Assembly (NCBI GenBank): GCA_002441545.1
Contig: DJWL01000005.1
Coordinates: forward strand, 7,533-71,532
Source: Flavobacteriaceae bacterium UBA6231
GTDB taxonomy: Bacteria > Bacteroidota > Bacteroidia > Flavobacteriales > Flavobacteriaceae
DNA length: 64,000 bases
Direction: 5' to 3'
Below the pieces are notes generated by a model. The model worked only from the letters and a program-made list of their open reading frames with translations. It made no database searches and was not told the origin of the DNA. The translations under genes and the position numbers were made by a program. Shown in pieces: positions 15,485 to 24,440 of the stretch (the stretch's first letter is position 1; every line of letters starts with the position of its first letter).

Positions 15485-17542
15485 CTACTTTTCTATTCTT
15501 ATTCTAACGTCAACAGCAACAATATCTTTTTCTAATGCCAAAAGTGGATTTATATCTAATTCAGAAATTTCTGGAGCCATACAAAGTAGTTGAGATATTT
15601 TTACAATGATGTCTGCATACTTTTTAATGTCTATACCTTTTTGACCTCTTATTCCTTTTAATATGGGATAGGCTCTTAAATTTGAAATCATTTTTAAAGC
15701 ATCAGACTCTGTGATTGGTACCATGGAAGTGCTTATATCTTTTAATACTTCAACAAAAATGCCTCCTAGTCCACATAATATGATGTGTGGATAATTAGTT
15801 TCCCTTTTTGCTCCAATAAATAGTTCCATCCCCTCAATCATTGGTTGAATCAGCACAGATTTCGCACCATGAATCTGCATTAACTTTTCAAAACTATCAT
15901 GCAATTCTCTGTCATTTGAAATATTTAAAATAACGCCTCCAACATCTGATTTATGCAATGGACCCTCTACTTTTAATACAACTGGGTATGTTAGTGTCTC
16001 TGAAACTTTGTTAAGTTCTGCTTTTGTTTTGGCATATTTTTGAAATGCAAATTGTACACCTGCATAATCTAATAGTTTAAAAGCTGTTTCAGACGACATG
16101 TATCCATTAGGAAGAGCATCTATCAGCTTTCTTACTCTTTTGAATGATTTAAATTCTAAAGTCTGAGATTTATCTCGTACTATACTTTGATTAGATACCT
16201 TAGCCAAAGCCTTTCCAAATAAAACTTCATCATGAAAAGCAATATTTCCTTTTGATATAAACTCATTTATTTCATCATGAACATTAATAACTGATGGCAA
16301 TATGGTGTAAATTGGCTTTTTTGAAGTCTTTATTTTTTTATTTAAAACTTCATACACATCATAAACCGGCTTTAATCCAGGGCTTCCAAAAATGACTGCT
16401 ATAGCATCAATCTCATCAAATTTATTGTCGCAATAATCAATAATGGTTTCTAATTGTTGAGCAGTTCCAGTAGCTAAAAAATCAATGGGATTAGCAACAG
16501 AAGACCCATCAAATAATTCTTTTAATAATGTTTTACAATGTGTTCCTTTTAATGAAGGCACTTGCAATCCGTTTTTTGACAAGACATCAGTTAGCATGAC
16601 CGCTGGACCTCCGGCATGTGTAATAATGGCTATATTTTTTCCCTTAGATTCCCTTTGCAATAAAATCCCCGCCACTGTAATCAGTTCGTTTCTGCCATAA
16701 CAACGTATAATTCCAGCCTTTTTAAATAAGGCGTCAATAAAAACATCTGAATTGGCTATAGCTCCTGTATGAGATGACGCCGCTTTATTGCCCGCTTCTG
16801 TACTACCAGCTTTAATTGCGGCAATTTTACAGCCTTTACTTAGTAATGAAGCGGTATGTTTTAAAAACTTAAGCGGATTTTTAACACTTTCAATATAAAG
16901 AAGTTTTACTTTAGGGCTTTTATCTTTATCAAAAGATATATCTAAATACTCTAATACCTCCTCTACTCCTATTTGAGCACTATTTCCTACCGTATAAACG
17001 CTTGAAAAGGTAAGACCCATACCAACAGCTGCCTCTATAATAAATACGGCAGTGGCTCCTGAACCAGATATAAAATCAACTCCAGAATCACTTAATTTAG
17101 GAATTGGTGTTGTAAAAACACCCGTGTAAAACTGATTAATTAAGCCTATATTATTAGGTCCTAAGAGGCTACCTCCCACTTTATCAATCAGTTTGACTAT
17201 TTCTTTTTCTAACCTTGCACCGTTTTCATCCTTTTCACTAAAACCTGCAGAGAAAATAATAAACCCTTTTGTGTTCTTTTGTTTAGTCAATATTCTTATT
17301 GGCTCTAAAATAAATTGTGCTGGTATTGCAATAATTGCCAAATCAACATTTGGAATTTCCTGAACATTTTTAAAAGATTTAACACCTTGTACAATTTCCT
17401 GTTTAGGATTAACAACAAATAAATCTCCTTTAAATTGATTCTCAATCAAGTTTTTTAAAACTCTTCCTCCAGGGCTGTGAATATTATCAGAACCTCCTAT
17501 TACAACAATACTTTTTGGTTGAACTAGTTTTGGGTGAAGCAT
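15485..17542 (-). CDS. ADP-forming acyl-CoA synthetase (acetate--CoA ligase family, fused alpha/beta)
   Basis: CoA-binding N-terminus, LGPNNIG, SSHTGA with phospho-His, NPIDF, C-terminal ATP-grasp (HKSDVGGV, ELDINPL). No GNAT domain, so not a Pat acetyltransferase. Confidence 0.88.
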   Translation of the reverse strand: MLHPKLVQPKSIVVIGGSDNIHSPGGRVLKNLIENQFKGDLFVVNPKQEIVQGVKSFKNVQEIPNVDLAIIAIPAQFILEPIRILTKQKNTKGFIIFSAGFSEKDENGARLEKEIVKLIDKVGGSLLGPNNIGLINQFYTGVFTTPIPKLSDSGVDFISGSGATAVFIIEAAVGMGLTFSSVYTVGNSAQIGVEEVLEYLDISFDKDKSPKVKLLYIESVKNPLKFLKHTASLLSKGCKIAAIKAGSTEAGNKAASSHTGAIANSDVFIDALFKKAGIIRCYGRNELITVAGILLQRESKGKNIAIITHAGGPAVMLTDVLSKNGLQVPSLKGTHCKTLLKELFDGSSVANPIDFLATGTAQQLETIIDYCDNKFDEIDAIAVIFGSPGLKPVYDVYEVLNKKIKTSKKPIYTILPSVINVHDEINEFISKGNIAFHDEVLFGKALAKVSNQSIVRDKSQTLEFKSFKRVRKLIDALPNGYMSSETAFKLLDYAGVQFAFQKYAKTKAELNKVSETLTYPVVLKVEGPLHKSDVGGVILNISNDRELHDSFEKLMQIHGAKSVLIQPMIEGMELFIGAKRETNYPHIILCGLGGIFVEVLKDISTSMVPITESDALKMISNLRAYPILKGIRGQKGIDIKKYADIIVKISQLLCMAPEISELDINPLLALEKDIVAVDVRIRIEK

Positions 17543-17595
17543 AACTAAAAATTGCTTTAATAACGTAAAGTAACTAATTTAATATAGGATTTTAG

Positions 17596-17609
17596 CTGAC
17601 ATTTATCAC
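17596..17609. promoter_or_regulatory. FNR-like box (C)TGAC-ATTT-ATCA(C) in the divergent ACD/aminotransferase promoter region
   Basis: Same TGAY-N4-RTCA core as at 3871 and 21170; outer bases do not match. Confidence 0.5.
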
Positions 17610-17663
17610 AATCTATTTTATTAAAATTTTGTTATTTTGAATAGACTAAAAACATCATGAATT

Positions 17664-18881
17664 ATGTATGCATTTTCAAACGCAGTTAATTCTAGGCATT
17701 CTGAAGACATAAAACTATTAATGTCCCAAGCATCTGGAAAGAGTTTGATTTCATTTGCAGGAGGCATGCCAAATAATGATTTATTTCCTGTAAAACAAAT
17801 TGATGATATTTATAATTCACTGCCAGACAATATAAAAAAATTATGTTTCCAATATGGGCCAACTTCTGGTTATCCACCATTAATCCAATCACTAAAAGAT
17901 CATTTAAACAATAAAGGATTACCTGTCCAAGACAATAAAATTTTAATAACTACTGGTTCATTACAAGCTATTTCAATTATAACTCAAGAGTTTGTTAATG
18001 AAGGTGATATTATATTAACTGAAAATCCATGCTTTGTTGGAGCACTGTCTGTATTTGAAACATTTGGAGCTAAAATAGAAAGCATCCCTATAGACAATCA
18101 TGGGATAGATATAAATGCATTAAAGAATAAAATTGCCACTTTAGAAAGAACGCCTAAATTTTTATATGTAACCCCTAATTATCATAATCCCGCGGGAATT
18201 ATTTACACACTCGAAAGAAAAAAAGAACTTTTAGAAACATTATCTGGTACAGGAATTATTTTACTTGAAGATGATGCGTATAGTGATTTGTATTTTAATG
18301 AAAATGAAAAATATCTAACCAAATCCATGAAGTCATTTGGGGTTAAGGATGTCGAAATCATTTATACTGGTTCCTTCTCAAAAATATTGGGTCCAGGTTT
18401 TAGATTAGGTTATATGCTTTCTTCACTAGAAATATTTGAAAAAGCTGAAACCGTAAAACAAGCCTTGGATGCCTGTACTTCTAATTTTATGCAAATATTA
18501 GCCAATGAATTTTTAGCACAGCATAAACTAGAATCTTATTTAAAATTCTTAAGAATTGAATATTTGGAAAGGAAAAATTTACTCCAACAGAGTTTAGAAA
18601 AATATATGCCAAAAGAAGTTACTTGGAATGAACCAAAAGGCGGTTTTTACATCTGGCTTAAGTTACCATCTCATATTAAATCAACAGACATATTCAAAGA
18701 AAGTGTTAAAGATGATGTTGTGTTTGTAACCGGAAGAACTTTTGATCCTGACAGTAAAAAGGATGACAGATTACGACTCTCGTTTTCAAATATGCCAAAA
18801 GAAAGCATTGAAAAAGGAGTCATAATTTTGGCTAAGGCTGTAGAAAAAGTACTTAAAAATGTTAAAGTTAAAAATACTTAA
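17664..18881 (+). CDS. PLP-dependent class I aminotransferase (aromatic amino acid/2-aminoadipate type)
   Basis: ISFAGGMP, YVTPNYHNPAG, EDDAY, GSFSKILGPGFRLG. No N-terminal wHTH, so not a MocR regulator. Confidence 0.88.
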   Translation: MYAFSNAVNSRHSEDIKLLMSQASGKSLISFAGGMPNNDLFPVKQIDDIYNSLPDNIKKLCFQYGPTSGYPPLIQSLKDHLNNKGLPVQDNKILITTGSLQAISIITQEFVNEGDIILTENPCFVGALSVFETFGAKIESIPIDNHGIDINALKNKIATLERTPKFLYVTPNYHNPAGIIYTLERKKELLETLSGTGIILLEDDAYSDLYFNENEKYLTKSMKSFGVKDVEIIYTGSFSKILGPGFRLGYMLSSLEIFEKAETVKQALDACTSNFMQILANEFLAQHKLESYLKFLRIEYLERKNLLQQSLEKYMPKEVTWNEPKGGFYIWLKLPSHIKSTDIFKESVKDDVVFVTGRTFDPDSKKDDRLRLSFSNMPKESIEKGVIILAKAVEKVLKNVKVKNT

Positions 18882-18894
18882 TTAATATATTTGA

Positions 18895-19494
18895 TTAAAT
18901 GTTGGTAGCTAAATTGGTGATTTCTTTGGCTATTTTTTTCCCCTCAAAAAAGGCTTTTAAGTTTAAGCTTATTATTTTGTCGCTTTTATGCTGAAACAGT
19001 TTTTTAATGGCATCCAAAAGACTTTCTTCTGATAACGGAATAATAGAAGCCGCAGCACCAAGCAATACCATATTTGTAACTTTTGAATTACCTATTTTTT
19101 TAGCAATTTCTGTAGCATTTATAATAATATGATACGGATGCTTTTTAATTTGTTTGAATAAATCATTTTTATCTGGATAGTTATCCGTATTAATAAATGG
19201 GTGAGAATCTGTAACCAACCAGCCATATTTATTCAAAAAAGGTGTGTATCTCAATAATTCCATAGGTTCTACAGATAATATTAAATCCGCTTTCCCTTCA
19301 GGAATGAGATCAGAAAAAATTTGTTTATCAGATATTCGAACATGGCATTGTACAGCACCACCACGTTGACTCATACCATGAACTTCAGATTGTTTTACAA
19401 ACAAATTTTCACTTAAAGCAGCCGTATCTAATACTGCAGCAATGGTTAAAATACCTTGTCCGCCAACGCCAGATAATATAATATTTGTTTTCAT
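18895..19494 (-). CDS. iorB: Indolepyruvate:ferredoxin oxidoreductase beta subunit
   Basis: GVGGQGILT, SEVHGMSQRGGAV..HVR, NMVLLGA. Confidence 0.92.
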   Translation of the reverse strand: MKTNIILSGVGGQGILTIAAVLDTAALSENLFVKQSEVHGMSQRGGAVQCHVRISDKQIFSDLIPEGKADLILSVEPMELLRYTPFLNKYGWLVTDSHPFINTDNYPDKNDLFKQIKKHPYHIIINATEIAKKIGNSKVTNMVLLGAAASIIPLSEESLLDAIKKLFQHKSDKIISLNLKAFFEGKKIAKEITNLATNI

Positions 19495-19503
19495 GCTTTT
19501 ATT

Positions 19504-21117
19504 TTAGCTTAATGAAGCGATTTTAGCTTTTATTTCCTCTTTTTTATCTCTCGATAATCTAACACAAGGTCTTTCTGAAATAATAACTGAAACTCCTTTA
19601 TATTTCAATTCATTTCTTAATAACTCAACATTTTGTTCATGATTTTTATTTAAAGGTATCATGGTTTTTAAATGGTCTGGATGCACTCCAATACCTAAAC
19701 AAATTTTATGCAACCTTCCAACAGCAGATGATTCTTGTGCTCCAGTCATGGCAATTGCTGAATTATCTGAAATGATTACTGTTATTGGAGAATTTTCATA
19801 AACTGCATCTAACAATCCCGTCATTCCTGAATGCGTAAAAGTTGAATCACCTATTACAGCAATGGCGTTTTCCAGTCCGGCATCAGCAGCTCCTTTAGCC
19901 ATAGTTATAGAAGCTCCCATATCAATTAGCGTGTTTACAGTTTTTAATGGAGGTAAAGCTCCTAATGCATAGCAACCAATATCTCCAAAGACGTTTTTAT
20001 TTCCTATTTCTGGAATTAACTCATTAATAGTATTAAATAAATCGGTATGACCGCAACCTTCACAAAGCTGTGGCGGTCTGCCAGATACTATTTCGGGAAT
20101 GGATTTAGAAATATTTTGAAAAATGCCTAAAGATTTACCAACAGTATTTGGATTAAGCTCACCTGTTAATGGAATATCTCCAGTTAATTTACCTTTAATT
20201 TTATCATTTTTATTAAAATAGTCATGTAGTAGTTCCTCAACTAAAGGATATCCTTCTTCAACTACAATTATTTTATCGCAATGCTTATAAAGTTTTTTTA
20301 TTTTTTCTTTAGGTAATGGATATTGAGAAATTTTCAAAATAGAATAAAAAGAAACATCATCACCAATATTTTCCATAACATAGTTATAAGCAATACCGCA
20401 AGCAATAATTCCAACATCATTATGTTGACTCAATTTTAAATCATTTAAAGAAGAACTTTCTGAAAGCTTAATTAAAATAGCCTTTTTATTAACTAATTTG
20501 TCAAATTGCTTTCTAGCATTCATTGGTAAAAGTGCAAACCTAGACGTATCAGTTGGTAATTGCATCACATTCTGAGCTCTTCTTTCTCGCAATTCAATAC
20601 CTGCACGCGAATGAGACAAACGAGTCACCATTCTTACCAAAACAGGTAGCTTTAATTCTTCAGAAAGATCAAAGGCATAATGCATAATATCATAAGCCTC
20701 TTGCTGATTTGAAGGCTCTAATATTGGAATCATGGCAAATTTTCCATAAAACCTTGAATCTTGTTCATTTTGTGAAGAGTGCATAGAAGGGTCATCAGCC
20801 ACCACAACTACAAGTCCACCATTAATTCCTGAAACAGACATATTCATAAAAACATCTGAAGCTACATTTAACCCCACATGCTTCATCACAACCAAGGCTC
20901 TTAAACCAGTATATGACATACCAAGAGCAGACTCCATAGCGGTTTTCTCGTTAACAGACCAGGTAGCATGAATTTTCAATTCCCTTGCAAGTTTTGACCT
21001 TTGAATATATTCAGTAATTTCAGTAGAAGGGGTTCCAGGATAAGCATAAACTCCCGATAATCCAGCATCAATGCTACCTTGAGCCAGTGCTTCATTCCCT
21101 AACAATAAACTTTTCAT
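19504..21117 (-). CDS. iorA: Indolepyruvate:ferredoxin oxidoreductase alpha subunit (short form)
   Basis: LLGNEA, YPGTPSTE, MKHVGLNVA, HSSQNEQDSR, CEGCGH, GDIGCY, GDSTFTHSG TPP motif. Confidence 0.92.
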   Translation of the reverse strand: MKSLLLGNEALAQGSIDAGLSGVYAYPGTPSTEITEYIQRSKLARELKIHATWSVNEKTAMESALGMSYTGLRALVVMKHVGLNVASDVFMNMSVSGINGGLVVVVADDPSMHSSQNEQDSRFYGKFAMIPILEPSNQQEAYDIMHYAFDLSEELKLPVLVRMVTRLSHSRAGIELRERRAQNVMQLPTDTSRFALLPMNARKQFDKLVNKKAILIKLSESSSLNDLKLSQHNDVGIIACGIAYNYVMENIGDDVSFYSILKISQYPLPKEKIKKLYKHCDKIIVVEEGYPLVEELLHDYFNKNDKIKGKLTGDIPLTGELNPNTVGKSLGIFQNISKSIPEIVSGRPPQLCEGCGHTDLFNTINELIPEIGNKNVFGDIGCYALGALPPLKTVNTLIDMGASITMAKGAADAGLENAIAVIGDSTFTHSGMTGLLDAVYENSPITVIISDNSAIAMTGAQESSAVGRLHKICLGIGVHPDHLKTMIPLNKNHEQNVELLRNELKYKGVSVIISERPCVRLSRDKKEEIKAKIASLS

Positions 21118-21169
21118 ATGATACTTCTATTTCTGTTAACAAATTTAAATGTAACACTATTAATAGAGT

Positions 21170-21183
21170 ATGATTTATGTCAT
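21170..21183. promoter_or_regulatory. FNR-like box ATGAT-TTAT-GTCAT upstream of iorA
   Basis: Centred 36.5 bp from the terminal G of TAAATTTG (21140-21147, minus strand). Confidence 0.6.
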
Positions 21184-21489: not shown

Positions 21490-22032
21490 ATGAAATACTT
21501 ATTATTCTATATTCTCATGTTTACTTTTTTCACTAAATCTATATCTCAAACCATGTCAACACAATCTTTATACGATATTAAAATTAACAGTTTAACAGGA
21601 ACCCCCATTGATTTATCTCTCTATAAAGGGAAATACATCTTGTTCGTTAATGTGGCTTCCAAATGTGGTTTTACTGGTCAATACGAAGATTTACAAAAAT
21701 TGTATAATATTTATCAAGATAAATTAATGATTATTGGTGTTCCATGCAATCAATTTGGAGAACAGGAACCAGGAACTGCAGCAGAAATTCAATCTTTTTG
21801 TCAGGCAAATTATGGTGTTACTTTTGTTATGAGCGAAAAGGTTGATGTGAAAGGAAAAAACCAGCATCCTTTATATCAATGGCTCACAGATAAAACAAAA
21901 AATGGGAAATCAAGTTCAACAGTAAAATGGAATTTTCAAAAATACTTAGTTGATAAAAAAGGAGCGTTAATTGATTATTATTTTTCTATAACAAATCCCA
22001 TGAGTGATAAAATAACAAAGCATTTACAATAG
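21490..22032 (+). CDS. Glutathione peroxidase family protein (Cys type)
   Basis: NVASKCGFT, PCNQFGEQEPG, WNFQKYL; the active-site codon is TGT, not TGA. Confidence 0.93.
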   Translation: MKYLLFYILMFTFFTKSISQTMSTQSLYDIKINSLTGTPIDLSLYKGKYILFVNVASKCGFTGQYEDLQKLYNIYQDKLMIIGVPCNQFGEQEPGTAAEIQSFCQANYGVTFVMSEKVDVKGKNQHPLYQWLTDKTKNGKSSSTVKWNFQKYLVDKKGALIDYYFSITNPMSDKITKHLQ

Positions 22033-22036
22033 AACT

Positions 22037-22207
22037 ATGATTTCATTATTTAAACCTAATTCAGAAGCAGAAAAACTTCGAAAAAAATATGAAATACTAA
22101 TGAAGGAATGGCATACGCTTTTAAATATTAATCGAAAAGAAAGTAACAAAAAATTTGCCGAAGCACAAGAAATACTTAATAAAATTGACCGCTTAAATCC
22201 TAATTAA
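22037..22207 (+). CDS. 56-aa small helical protein, Lacal_2735-like (missed by ORF track)
   Basis: MISLFKPNSEAEKLRKKYEILMKEWHTLLNINRKESNKKFAEAQEILNKIDRLNPN; TAATG stop/start overlap with tspO. Confidence 0.75.
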   Translation: MISLFKPNSEAEKLRKKYEILMKEWHTLLNINRKESNKKFAEAQEILNKIDRLNPN

Positions 22208-22668
22208 TGAAGGTTCTAAAATATTTATTCGTTTTTCTAATCATTAATTTTGGAGCTCTAGGTTTAGGAGTATTGTTCATGCAAAATGGTCCACAAACAG
22301 ATTGGTATTTACAACTAAACAAAGCGCCTTGGACACCACCAGGCTGGGTTTTTGGAGCAGCTTGGTCTACTATTATGTTTTGTTTTTCTTTTTACATAAT
22401 GTATCTTTTTTTGGCACAACCAAATACTAAAGTCAAAATATTATTCACAATTCAATTCATTCTAAATGTAGGATGGAATTTTGTTTTTTTCAATCAACAT
22501 TTAGTTCTTCTTGGATTGATAGTAATACTTGCGCTTACTGCAATAGTTAGCATATTTTTATATGATTTCAGAAAACAAATGCAGCTAAAAACACTATTAA
22601 TCCTACCCTATTTTTTGTGGTTATGTATTGCATGTTCCCTGAATTTATACATTTTACTTTACAATTAA
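22207..22668 (+). CDS. tspO: TspO/MBR tryptophan-rich sensory protein
   Basis: WY..LNKAPWTPPGWVFGAAW, LNVGWNFVFF, PYFLWLCIA. Confidence 0.9.
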   Translation: MKVLKYLFVFLIINFGALGLGVLFMQNGPQTDWYLQLNKAPWTPPGWVFGAAWSTIMFCFSFYIMYLFLAQPNTKVKILFTIQFILNVGWNFVFFNQHLVLLGLIVILALTAIVSIFLYDFRKQMQLKTLLILPYFLWLCIACSLNLYILLYN

Positions 22669-22671
22669 ACC

Positions 22672-23139
22672 ATGAAGATTTATACCTTACATAAAAAGCA
22701 AAATTTACCTATTAATATGCAACAAGCTTGGGATTTTCTTTCAGATCCTAAAAATCTAAAAACTATCTCGCCAGACTATATGGGTTTTAATATTTTATGT
22801 GGTGCTGACCGACCTATGTATGCAGGTCAAATTATACAATACATAGTTAAACCTGTTTTTGGTATTAAAACAAAATGGGTAACTGAAATTACACATGTGA
22901 TTGATAAACATTATTTTGTTGATGAACAACGTTTTGGTCCGTATAAATTTTGGCATCACAAACACTTTATAAAAGAAATAGCTAATGGCATAGAAATGGA
23001 AGATATAATAGATTATAAAATACCTTTTGGAATTCTTGGCCAGTTAGTGCATCCTATTATTGTAAAGCCAAAACTTGAAGAAATATTTAATTACAGATCC
23101 AAAAAATTAGAAGAACTCTTTGGTGTTTATAAACCATGA
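22672..23139 (+). CDS. SRPBCC-family protein
   Basis: AWDFLSDPKNL, WVTEIT, FVDEQRFGPYKFWHHKH. Confidence 0.88.
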   Translation: MKIYTLHKKQNLPINMQQAWDFLSDPKNLKTISPDYMGFNILCGADRPMYAGQIIQYIVKPVFGIKTKWVTEITHVIDKHYFVDEQRFGPYKFWHHKHFIKEIANGIEMEDIIDYKIPFGILGQLVHPIIVKPKLEEIFNYRSKKLEELFGVYKP

Positions 23140-24440
23140 AGCAATCTGTAAATATTTTTTGGTTTAGACGAGATTTAAGACTTGAAGACAATGCAGGATT
23201 ATTTGAAGCCTTAAAGGGGAAGAATCCAGTACTTCCAATTTTTATTTTTGATTCCAATATTTTAGAACACCTTCCTGAAGATGATGCCCGAGTTACTTTT
23301 ATTCATGAAACACTACAAGACCTAAAGCAAACCCTTAAAGATTATTACGAGAGCGATATTGCATTATATCACGGAGAGCCATTAGATATTTATAAACATC
23401 TCATTTCAAATTATTCTATTGAAACTGTTTACACAAATCATGATTATGAACCTTATGCAAACAAAAGAGATAAAGAAATAAAAGACTTTTTAGCGACTCA
23501 AAACATAGAATTTAAAACTTATAAAGATCAAGTCATTTTTGAAAAGAATGAGATACTAAAAAACAATGGCACTCCATATGTAGTCTACACACCTTACATG
23601 AAAAGATGGAAAGCTATATTTAATTCTAAAAAATTAATTCACTTTGATTCAAAATCAAATTTATCTAAGCTTGTTAAGAACTTTAATGTGGCTGATTGTA
23701 ATCTTTCAGAAATGGGATTTAAAACGTCTTCACAAAAAATAAAAGAATATAACGTTTTATCTGATTTAATTAAAAATTATGAAGCAACACGTAACTATCC
23801 TGCACAGGATTCTACCTCTCGGTTAGGTCCACATTTACGTTTTGGAACTGTAAGTATTCGTTCAATAATTGAAAAAGTTGTTTCTGAAAAAAATGAAATC
23901 TTTTGGCAAGAACTTATTTGGCGCGAGTTTTTTATGCAGATTTTATGGCATTTTCCACACACATCTACCCAAAGTTTTAAACCACTATATGATCGTATTT
24001 TATGGCGAAATAATGAACTAGAATTTAAAATCTGGTGTGAAGGAAAAACAGGTTATCCATTGGTAGACGCTGGTATGCGTCAATTGAATAAAACAGGATT
24101 TATGCACAATCGTGTACGTATGCTGGTTGGTAGTTTTTTATGTAAACATTTATTGATTGACTGGCGTTGGGGTGAAGCTTATTTTGCTGAAAAACTACAC
24201 GACTATGAAATGGCTAGTAATGTTGGAAACTGGCAATGGGTAGCTGGTTGTGGTGTTGATGCTGCTCCATATTTTAGAATATTTAACCCTACAACGCAAA
24301 TTGAAAAGTTTGATAAACACTTAACTTATATTAAAAAATGGGTGCCGGATTTTCAAGAATTAACCTATCCAGCTCCTATGGTTGACCATCAGTTTGCCAG
24401 AGAACGCTGTTTGCAGGTTTATAAAAAATCCTTAAATTGA
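23136..24440 (+). CDS. phrB: CPD DNA photolyase
   Basis: WFRRDLRLEDN, TSRLGPHLRFG, WREFF, TGYPLVDAGMRQL, HNRVRM, NVGNWQW. Confidence 0.93.
   Translation: MKQSVNIFWFRRDLRLEDNAGLFEALKGKNPVLPIFIFDSNILEHLPEDDARVTFIHETLQDLKQTLKDYYESDIALYHGEPLDIYKHLISNYSIETVYTNHDYEPYANKRDKEIKDFLATQNIEFKTYKDQVIFEKNEILKNNGTPYVVYTPYMKRWKAIFNSKKLIHFDSKSNLSKLVKNFNVADCNLSEMGFKTSSQKIKEYNVLSDLIKNYEATRNYPAQDSTSRLGPHLRFGTVSIRSIIEKVVSEKNEIFWQELIWREFFMQILWHFPHTSTQSFKPLYDRILWRNNELEFKIWCEGKTGYPLVDAGMRQLNKTGFMHNRVRMLVGSFLCKHLLIDWRWGEAYFAEKLHDYEMASNVGNWQWVAGCGVDAAPYFRIFNPTTQIEKFDKHLTYIKKWVPDFQELTYPAPMVDHQFARERCLQVYKKSLN

Follow-up and report, generated by a model that had tools for sequence, protein, structure and literature searches.

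A candidate low-oxygen route from aromatic amino acids to aryl-acetic acids and ATP, encoded by an aminotransferase–IorAB–ADP-forming acyl-CoA synthetase cluster in a minority of Flavobacteriaceae

Introduction

The locus described here raises the question of whether a flavobacterium may draw ATP from aromatic amino acids when oxygen is scarce or, with the same enzymes running in reverse, build those amino acids from aryl-acetic acids. It lies in a stretch of 64,000 nucleotides from Flavobacteriaceae bacterium UBA6231 (contig DJWL01000005.1, positions 7,533 to 71,532), the whole of which is called the window. Its four genes encode an ADP-forming acyl-CoA synthetase (ACD), a class I pyridoxal phosphate (PLP) aminotransferase and the two subunits, IorA and IorB, of an indolepyruvate:ferredoxin oxidoreductase (IOR). 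A preliminary description, made from the letters of the sequence, had read them as an archaeal-style module for aromatic amino acid fermentation, in which anoxic ATP formation would be accompanied by the excretion of aryl acids. According to the present analysis, the four genes probably constitute a catabolic module, induced at low oxygen, that would convert aromatic amino acids to aryl-acetic acids with a yield of ATP; its components and its wiring point, as set out below, to Bacteroidota and not to archaea.

In the proposed sequence of reactions, the aminotransferase would move the amino group of Phe, Tyr or Trp, and possibly of Met or Leu, to 2-oxoglutarate; IorAB, with thiamine pyrophosphate (TPP) and one proximal [4Fe-4S] cluster, would oxidatively decarboxylate the resulting arylpyruvate to arylacetyl-CoA while reducing an external ferredoxin or flavodoxin; and ACD would turn arylacetyl-CoA, ADP and Pi into arylacetate, ATP and CoA via phospho-His258, the reduced carrier being re-oxidised by an Rnf complex or by other sinks. 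Each of the three transcription units involved is preceded by one Crp/Fnr-type operator, with a constant spacing to the start codon, and for this reason they would be switched together with other microaerobic and fermentative genes.

Identity of the Four Proteins

The 685-aa ACD is built, over residues 8-683, of CoA_binding, Succ_CoA_lig and ATP-grasp_5 domains (PF13380/PF02629, PF13607 and PF13549; Pfam and NCBIfam), and Pfam found no GNAT acetyltransferase domain in it, a C-terminal domain whose absence sets true ligases apart from Pat-type protein acetyltransferases; the Pat proteins 9isq and 9it0 are longer, at 877-886 aa. Its best relative of solved structure is the ADP-forming 4-hydroxybutyrate (4HB)-CoA ligase 8wzu, aligned over the full length (E 1e-89), and the other solved matches comprise 2csu, 4xyl and the dimethylsulfoniopropionate (DMSP) lyase DddX (7cm9, E 7e-56). 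The phospho-His loop of the alpha part, SSH258TGA, falls in register with MSHTGA of 8wzu and SSHTGS of 2csu, the second histidine, in the beta part (H530KSD), falls in register with HKSD of 8wzu, and both His258 and His530 are invariant across 36-37 relatives. The intact phospho-His and the missing GNAT domain of the preliminary description are both borne out. The protein is most closely related to other ACDs of Bacteroidota (48-54% identity), and the NCBIfam models for acetate, 4HB and 3-hydroxypropionate (3HP) ligases score it at 258-372 bits, against cut-offs of 1200-1300. The predicted reaction is acyl-CoA + ADP + Pi <-> acid + ATP + CoA, with a preference for arylacetyl-CoA if the enzyme is of the ACS II type.

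The oxidoreductase is of the two-subunit type: POR_N and TPP_enzyme_C are fused in a chain of 537 aa, and an adjacent chain of 199 aa contains the POR domain. IorB scores 278.6 bits on NF005324 (cut-off 222) and contains PF01558, and IorA scores 522 bits on TIGR03336 over model positions 1-544 of 595, the shortfall against the cut-off of 650.9 being due to the lack of the final ~50 positions of the model; IorA is a short form. The C-terminal ferredoxin domain with two [4Fe-4S] clusters (Fer4), a feature of the classical archaeal form, was not found by Pfam in the 537-aa IorA, but alignment to a long form indicates that the four cysteines of the proximal [4Fe-4S] cluster are kept: C353 and C356 (CEGC), C381 (GDIGC) and C518 (RPC). 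The long form is represented by a Bacteroidota IorA of 599 aa (L030), with Fer4 at residues 567-588, and the alignment of the window's IorA to it stops just past the RPC motif, a few residues after the fourth cysteine. IorA is present in 85 of 401 Bacteroidota genomes, and the lack of the ferredoxin domain appears to be the norm of the phylum and not a peculiarity of the window, because most of the open frames measure ~534-560 aa. A search of solved structures with IorA returned only weak matches to 2-oxoacid:ferredoxin oxidoreductase (OFOR) alpha subunits, and no IOR structure. Activity on indolepyruvate, phenylpyruvate and 4-hydroxyphenylpyruvate is suggested by the 55-59% identity with the IorA of Bacteroidales and by the assays published for the ligase next to that protein's gene (PMC13285125).

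The aminotransferase carries Aminotran_1_2 (PF00155), with the Schiff-base lysine read from the motif SFSK, and it has no helix-turn-helix (HTH) domain, as was noted previously, because the MocR/PdxR models match it with their effector half only (model positions 90-447). Its best solved relative is PH0207 of P. horikoshii (1x0m/3aov, E 1e-73), and the T. thermophilus LysN (E 7e-66, residues 7-398) and the multi-substrate aminotransferase (MsAT) of Thermococcus profundus are also close; the aromatic aminotransferase (AroAT) of Pyrococcus horikoshii, 1dju, follows at E 1.2e-16 only, far behind this kynurenine aminotransferase (KAT)/LysN group, and a Pyrococcus-type AroAT identity was accordingly rejected. 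Orthologues with 46-53% identity sit in iorAB clusters of other Bacteroidota. As a separate observation, the last ~17 residues (window 18830-18881) find no match in relatives; tblastn covers residues 1-388 in L001-L004 and L009.

Linkage and Co-inheritance

The distribution of the genes was determined in 201 genomes, namely the window's own and a single representative for each of 200 other Flavobacteriaceae genera. In this sample iorA occurs in 11 genomes and ACD in 22, and every one of the 11 genomes with iorA has an ACD. The cluster of iorA and ACD is contiguous in 9 of these 11: the order iorA-iorB-aminotransferase (reversed)-ACD is found in six, the window's own genome included, and iorA-iorB-ACD without the aminotransferase in three. 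Of the remaining two, one has a divergent aminotransferase–ACD pair 20 kb from iorAB, and in the other the genes are split across contigs. The full order recurs, with 69-91% protein identity, in five named relatives (Yeosuana, Gaetbulibacter aquiaggeris KEM-8 with locus L002, Yeosuana marina JLT21 with locus L003, and two Flavobacteriaceae metagenome-assembled genomes). Close homologues of the ACD itself are also present in species of Salinimicrobium, Salegentibacter and Christiangramia. The linkage of the ior, aminotransferase and ACD genes is therefore far beyond chance, and the trait is patchy, being present in ~5% of the genera sampled.

In a maximum-likelihood tree of 37 ACDs, the 11 ACDs linked to both ior and aminotransferase genes form one clade (SH-aLRT 99), and 17 unlinked ACDs from Flavobacteriaceae, Bacteroidales and other groups form a different one (support 95), which also contains the ACD of locus L023, described below, and a long-branched, distant one (L012); the remaining ior-associated ACDs branch outside the unlinked clade. 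The tree and the distribution counts together indicate that the genes are co-inherited, one of the points on which, in the preliminary description, the idea of a module had been made to depend.

The unlinked ACDs of other Flavobacteriaceae (L025, L036, L038, L040, L041 and L044) share a recurring neighbourhood of their own; a COX3-like gene and an Rrf2 regulator lie near the ACD in L025, and the other unlinked loci show similar runs of open reading frames (ORFs) of 146-163, 441-451, 308-324 and 521-535 aa.

A Shared Crp/Fnr-Type Box

A 12-nt box, TGAY-N4-RTCA, which is a palindromic operator of the TGA-N6-TCA type, stands upstream of iorA and, in a single copy, between the ACD and aminotransferase genes, 54 nt from the start of the former and ~55 nt from that of the latter. 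Despite diverging flanks, it is kept at both positions in L001-L004 and L009; the iorA-upstream copy is also found in seven more Flavobacteriaceae loci (L018, L019, L031, L032, L034, L035 and L037) and the intergenic copy in L031-L034 and L037, which brings the loci with a conserved operator to at least 12. The three iorA-iorB-ACD operons carry the box before iorA only; the same box mostly precedes the unlinked ACDs of other Flavobacteriaceae, and it is absent from the Bacteroidales-type iorAB loci examined.

In the window's own genome the pattern occurs at 321 sites, 86 of them intergenic. The distances to the start codons that follow peak sharply at 50-59 nt, and 39 box-to-start pairs fall in the range 45-62 nt, where six control patterns similar in composition give 1-9. 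The consensus of the Bacteroidota -7 promoter element is TAnnTTTG; since a sequence like it lies 23 nt downstream of the iorA box, the centre of the box would be near -41, the position of an activator.

According to Pfam and BLAST, the genes preceded by the box include respiratory ones (the cbb3 oxidase CcoN-FixO, a CcoI/FixI-like ATPase and ResB/CcsA for cytochrome c biogenesis) and metabolic ones, namely pyruvate:ferredoxin oxidoreductase (PFOR), a KorA-like OFOR, Pta, pyruvate phosphate dikinase (PPDK), phosphoenolpyruvate carboxykinase (PEPCK) and the small subunit of a NiFe hydrogenase, along with ribonucleotide reductase, HemA, two Usp proteins, a Mo-oxidoreductase with MoeA, a lyase like tryptophanase or tyrosine phenol-lyase (TPL) and a Crp-family regulator. 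A candidate regulator is the product of this last gene, which is autoregulated (C113:6688-7347). The content of the set looks like that expected of an FNR/FixK-like low-oxygen regulon, and the module is assigned to it because the same box precedes the cbb3 oxidase, PFOR, Pta, hydrogenase, PEPCK and Usp genes. Expression of the module may accordingly respond to oxygen, and the anoxic operation assumed in the preliminary description finds its best support, albeit of an indirect kind, in the shared, conserved box.

Two further observations concern the pattern itself. On contig C88 (41000-92000), ~20 intergenic copies of the core lie within ~50 kb, with different flanks (often CAATGAT...ATCAG), and one of them is followed by an LdhA-like gene; this cluster may represent the sites of a second regulator or a mobile region. 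The boxed beta-eliminating lyase, similar to tryptophanase or TPL (460 aa, box 46 nt upstream), is found on contig C96 (46197-59776), a few kb before a complete trpE-G-D-C-B-A, and would constitute a second, pyruvate-yielding route of aromatic amino acid breakdown in the putative regulon.

Ligase Exchange Within Bacteroidota

The combination of aminotransferase, IorAB and CoA ligase is a phylum-wide module in Bacteroidota. Outside Flavobacteriaceae, 64 of 80 genomes with iorA have a PaaK-like AMP-forming ligase no more than 2 kb away from it, which upholds the contrast with an AMP-forming, Bacteroides-type arrangement that had been drawn in the preliminary description. In L016 the order is iorA-iorB-PaaK-like-ACT pair-aminotransferase, the last being 46% identical to that of the window. 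The AMP-forming ligase beside the Bacteroides IOR has been assayed as an arylacetate-CoA ligase and regarded by the authors as possibly biosynthetic, and the B. thetaiotaomicron IOR is involved in phenylacetate formation (PMC13285125). The Flavobacteriaceae version carries the ADP-forming ACD in place of PaaK and ACT.

ACDs of the window's orthogroup also recur beside other sets of aminotransferase and OFOR genes. In L023 (G437:C1:1689000-1703000), from another family, an ACD orthologue with 52% identity is followed by a flavodoxin, a 437-aa class I/II aminotransferase and the alpha, beta and gamma subunits of an OFOR; judged by its gene content, this locus is an independent analogue, a fermentation cassette that includes the gene for its own electron carrier. 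In L017 (G322:C6:68000-83000), aminotransferase, ACT and PaaK-like genes run divergently from iorA-iorB, and downstream of the latter pair comes a distant ACD paralogue (689 aa, 30% identity); the presence of both ligase types beside one iorAB suggests that the two serve opposite directions.

Direction of Flux and Alternative Readings

Pathway genes were sought in the window's own genome, which is 94.6% complete, by BLAST with E. coli K-12 protein queries. Besides a PFOR split over two contig ends, the genome has a complete Rnf operon and KorB-like and LdhA-like genes, and reduced ferredoxin can presumably be re-oxidised by Rnf. None of paaA, paaB, paaC and paaK was found with these queries, and the sole PaaK-like ORF (C92) lies among glycosyltransferases in a polysaccharide cluster; arylacetyl-CoA consequently has no visible fate other than ACD, and a role of IorAB as a feeder of the aerobic Paa pathway was rejected for this genome. 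A complete trp operon (trpEGDCBA) and prephenate dehydratase are present, so that the reverse, biosynthetic route is not needed, while the E. coli TyrA and AroF queries gave no match at E <= 1e-3; tryptophan, and probably phenylalanine as well, can thus be synthesised de novo. Taken as a whole, this context favours to some degree the oxidative, ATP-yielding direction.

Several observations weigh against a catabolic, aromatic-specific and oxygen-controlled module. ADP-forming ligases are reversible, and the closest solved relative of the ACD, 8wzu from Nitrosopumilus, runs in the CoA-ester-forming direction; an uptake-type NiFe hydrogenase belongs to the same regulon and, with Rnf, could feed reductive carboxylation; acetyl-CoA from PFOR may be a further or even the chief substrate of the genome's only ACD; the solved relatives of the aminotransferase are broad in specificity (kynurenine, 2-aminoadipate, Glu and aromatic amino acids); and the autoregulated Crp-family candidate does not have the N-terminal Cys cluster of the FNR type.

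The first two of these points belong to the best-surviving alternative, a biosynthetic or salvage direction, in which ACD would activate external arylacetates at the cost of one ATP-to-ADP step, IorAB would carboxylate the CoA esters reductively and the aminotransferase would make Phe, Tyr or Trp, as has been proposed for methanogens and Bacteroides. The reversibility of the ligase and the supply of reduced ferredoxin by the hydrogenase and Rnf keep this route feasible; the nearest solved relatives of the ACD, moreover, are anabolic 4HB/3HP-CoA ligases, and the orthologous aminotransferase and IorAB of Bacteroidales are coupled to the AMP-forming arylacetate-CoA ligase and an ACT-domain protein, the set read as possibly biosynthetic (PMC13285125). 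Against it stand not only the trp operon and prephenate dehydratase but also the specific exchange, in Flavobacteriaceae, of a near-irreversible AMP-forming ligase and its ACT protein for an energy-conserving ACD, the retention of both ligase types in L017 and the catabolic or fermentative nature of the regulon partners Pta, PFOR, PPDK and PEPCK, and the biosynthetic reading is considered unlikely.

A second alternative retains the logic of the fermentative pathway and changes its substrates, which would be mainly non-aromatic, either 2-oxoacids from Met, Leu, Ile, Val, 2-aminoadipate or kynurenine, or, with ACD acting chiefly on it, the acetyl-CoA from PFOR. It is in line with the multi-substrate character of the aminotransferase relatives (KAT II, LysN and MsAT), with the score of IorA under the TIGR03336 equivalog cut-off, with the single ACD of the genome and with the unlinked Flavobacteriaceae ACDs, which bear the same box without any ior genes. 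Nevertheless, IorB passes the NCBI equivalog cut-off, IorA is close to the Bacteroidales IorA whose partner ligase has been assayed as an arylacetate-CoA ligase, the ior-linked ACDs form a clade separate from the unlinked ones, which fits a change of specificity, and Pta is present for acetyl-CoA, so that a mainly non-aromatic diet of the pathway appears rather improbable.

That the genes are adjacent without any pathway meaning, the ACD-like protein being a DddX-type DMSP lyase or a Pat-like regulator, or IorAB feeding aerobic Paa ring degradation, is very improbable, since, although DddX is a detectable relative, the identity to DddX-type proteins is far below that to Bacteroidota ACDs, the linkage persists, along with a common operator, in at least 11 genera, and no paaA, paaB, paaC or paaK was found with the E. 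coli queries in the 94.6%-complete genome. A DddX-like lyase and a Pat-like acetyltransferase were rejected on the domain content, without GNAT, and on that conserved linkage.

If the catabolic reading of the window's module is extended to the phylum, a single core of aminotransferase and IorAB could be combined with two ligases that set the direction of flux: the AMP-forming PaaK-type enzyme with an ACT sensor would serve aryl-acid assimilation in gut and rumen Bacteroidales, and in a minority of Flavobacteriaceae the ACD, controlled by a low-oxygen Crp/Fnr-type operator, would be used for excretion with a gain of ATP. The ferredoxin-domain-less IorA may be comparatively oxygen-tolerant, which would allow a micro-oxic release of phenylacetate, 4-hydroxyphenylacetate and indole-3-acetate. 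This wider model is put forward tentatively, as a conjecture that may well prove wrong.

Comparison With Known Systems

The peptide fermentation of Thermococcales, in which an aromatic aminotransferase, IOR and the ADP-forming ACS II act in succession, resembles the window's module in the three reaction types and their order, in the formation of ATP via a phospho-His ACD and in an IOR composed of a fused alpha-beta and a gamma subunit. The resemblance does not extend to origin, as the label archaeal-style in the preliminary description might imply. The window's ACD is one fused chain with its nearest relatives in Bacteroidota, unlike the solved archaeal ACD (4xyl, 2csu) with separate alpha and beta chains; the aminotransferase is of the KAT/LysN type and not of the 1DJU AroAT type; IorA has no ferredoxin domain; and the module is under a Crp/Fnr-type box. 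The aminotransferase and both Ior subunits have their orthologues in the set of Bacteroidales (46-59% identity), and IOR beside ADP-forming (PF13607) ligases has already been noted in Firmicutes (PMC13285125). Because each component is nearest to Bacteroidota, the subgroup of the aminotransferase is not that of the archaeal enzyme and IorA is without the ferredoxin domain, the genes are not regarded as orthologous imports or as a transferred archaeal set; a recent horizontal import from archaea was likewise rejected, the GC content being uniform with the flanks and the nearest homologues of all four genes being found in Bacteroidota.

The iorA-iorB-PaaK-like-ACT-aminotransferase cluster of Bacteroides and Prevotella shares with the window an orthologous short IorA (55-59%), IorB (48-57%) and aminotransferase (46-51%), but its ligase is AMP-forming, it has the ACT-pair protein alongside, and its loci lack the Crp/Fnr-type box; Flavobacteriaceae have neither that ligase nor the ACT pair and use ACD. 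In Peptostreptococcales, IOR and 2-oxoisovalerate:ferredoxin oxidoreductase (VOR) genes often adjoin Pta plus Ack or an ADP-forming ligase (PMC13285125); these clusters and HpdDEFG-HpdJ-HpdK of Clostridium scatologenes resemble the module as oxidative Stickland branches that lead to an aryl acid, ATP and reduced ferredoxin, and differ from it in that they belong to strict anaerobes of another phylum, the characterised example having a four-subunit OFOR with a phosphotransacylase/kinase pair and no ACD. The L023-type modules of other Bacteroidota, with ACD, flavodoxin, aminotransferase and three- or four-subunit OFOR, have an ACD of the same orthogroup and differ in the separate alpha, beta and gamma subunits, in the aminotransferase and in the electron carrier encoded within the cluster.

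The chemistry is therefore already known, and it is the host and the wiring, not the mechanism, that are new. A search of the literature found no paper on IOR/ACD, or on this cluster, in Flavobacteriaceae, and as far as that literature shows the novel features are the tight cluster in a minority of the family, the swap of ligase type on the aminotransferase and IorAB core, and the Crp/Fnr-type operator at a fixed position.

Physiological and Ecological Implications

If the catabolic reading holds, the cluster would provide a genetic basis for facultative amino acid fermentation in a family whose members are commonly regarded as aerobic degraders of polysaccharides. Under the wider model, and if the short IorA is indeed comparatively oxygen-tolerant, nominally aerobic flavobacteria, often associated with algae or sediment, could release phenylacetate, 4-hydroxyphenylacetate and auxin under micro-oxic conditions, and the latter would be formed by a bacterial route to indole-3-acetate (IAA) that is not listed among the known ones and is overlooked by surveys limited to ipdC, indole-3-acetamide (IAM) or tryptamine (TAM) genes. 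The route from aminotransferase through IOR and ACD to auxin or phenylacetate goes unscored in auxin-gene surveys of marine Bacteroidota; a study of the Pyropia microbiome, for instance, looked for ipdC only (PMC8984609). The presence of PaaK plus ACT or of ACD on the same aminotransferase and IorAB core would offer a natural comparison of how a reversible 2-oxoacid:ferredoxin pathway takes its direction from the CoA ligase chosen, and the operator at its fixed position defines a candidate, directly testable low-oxygen regulon of Flavobacteriaceae.

Layout of the Locus and Neighbouring Genes

Table 1. Genes and putative regulatory elements of the locus (window positions), with further examples of the Crp/Fnr-type box in the same genome.
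Feature	Position	Strand	Length	Basis or remark
ACD, fused alpha-beta ADP-forming acyl-CoA synthetase	15485..17542	-	685 aa	ORF and Pfam PF13380/PF13607/PF13549
Crp/Fnr-type box TGACATTTATCA	17597..17608	.		Within the 121-bp divergent ACD/aminotransferase intergenic region
Class I PLP aminotransferase (subgroup gamma, KAT II / LysN / MsAT-like)	17664..18881	+	405 aa	PF00155
IorB, gamma-type subunit of indolepyruvate:ferredoxin oxidoreductase	18895..19494	-	199 aa	NF005324, PF01558
IorA short form, fused alpha+beta TPP subunit	19504..21117	-	537 aa	TIGR03336
Candidate Bacteroidota -7 promoter element TAAATTTG	21140..21147	-		Predicted; read from sequence
Crp/Fnr-type box TGATTTATGTCA	21171..21182	.		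53 nt upstream of the iorA start codon
Example box positions	C187:8722, C145:11144, C121:10211, C84:7913, C113:6623; window 3872, 17597, 21171			

The region 15485-21117 contains exactly four long ORFs, all intact, and the contiguity of the ACD, aminotransferase, iorA and iorB genes that had been described earlier is exact, with one correction (Table 1). The aminotransferase gene is divergent from the ACD gene and convergent with iorB, the two stop codons being 13 bp apart, and because it sits on the opposite strand the cluster comprises three transcription units and not a single operon. The GC content of the four genes, 0.29-0.34, is the same as that of the flanks. The sequencing runs that contain DNA of the window are DNA metagenomes from hydrocarbon, groundwater, sediment and landfill sources, oxygen-poor habitats that speak for the proposed module; no RNA run turned up among them.

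Divergent from iorA, the window encodes at 21490-24440 a glutathione peroxidase, TspO, an SRPBCC/polyketide-cyclase-like protein and a photolyase, and the position of the glutathione peroxidase and TspO genes beside iorA is kept in L001-L003 and L009; a block related to oxidative and light stress thus directly adjoins the oxygen-sensitive enzyme set.

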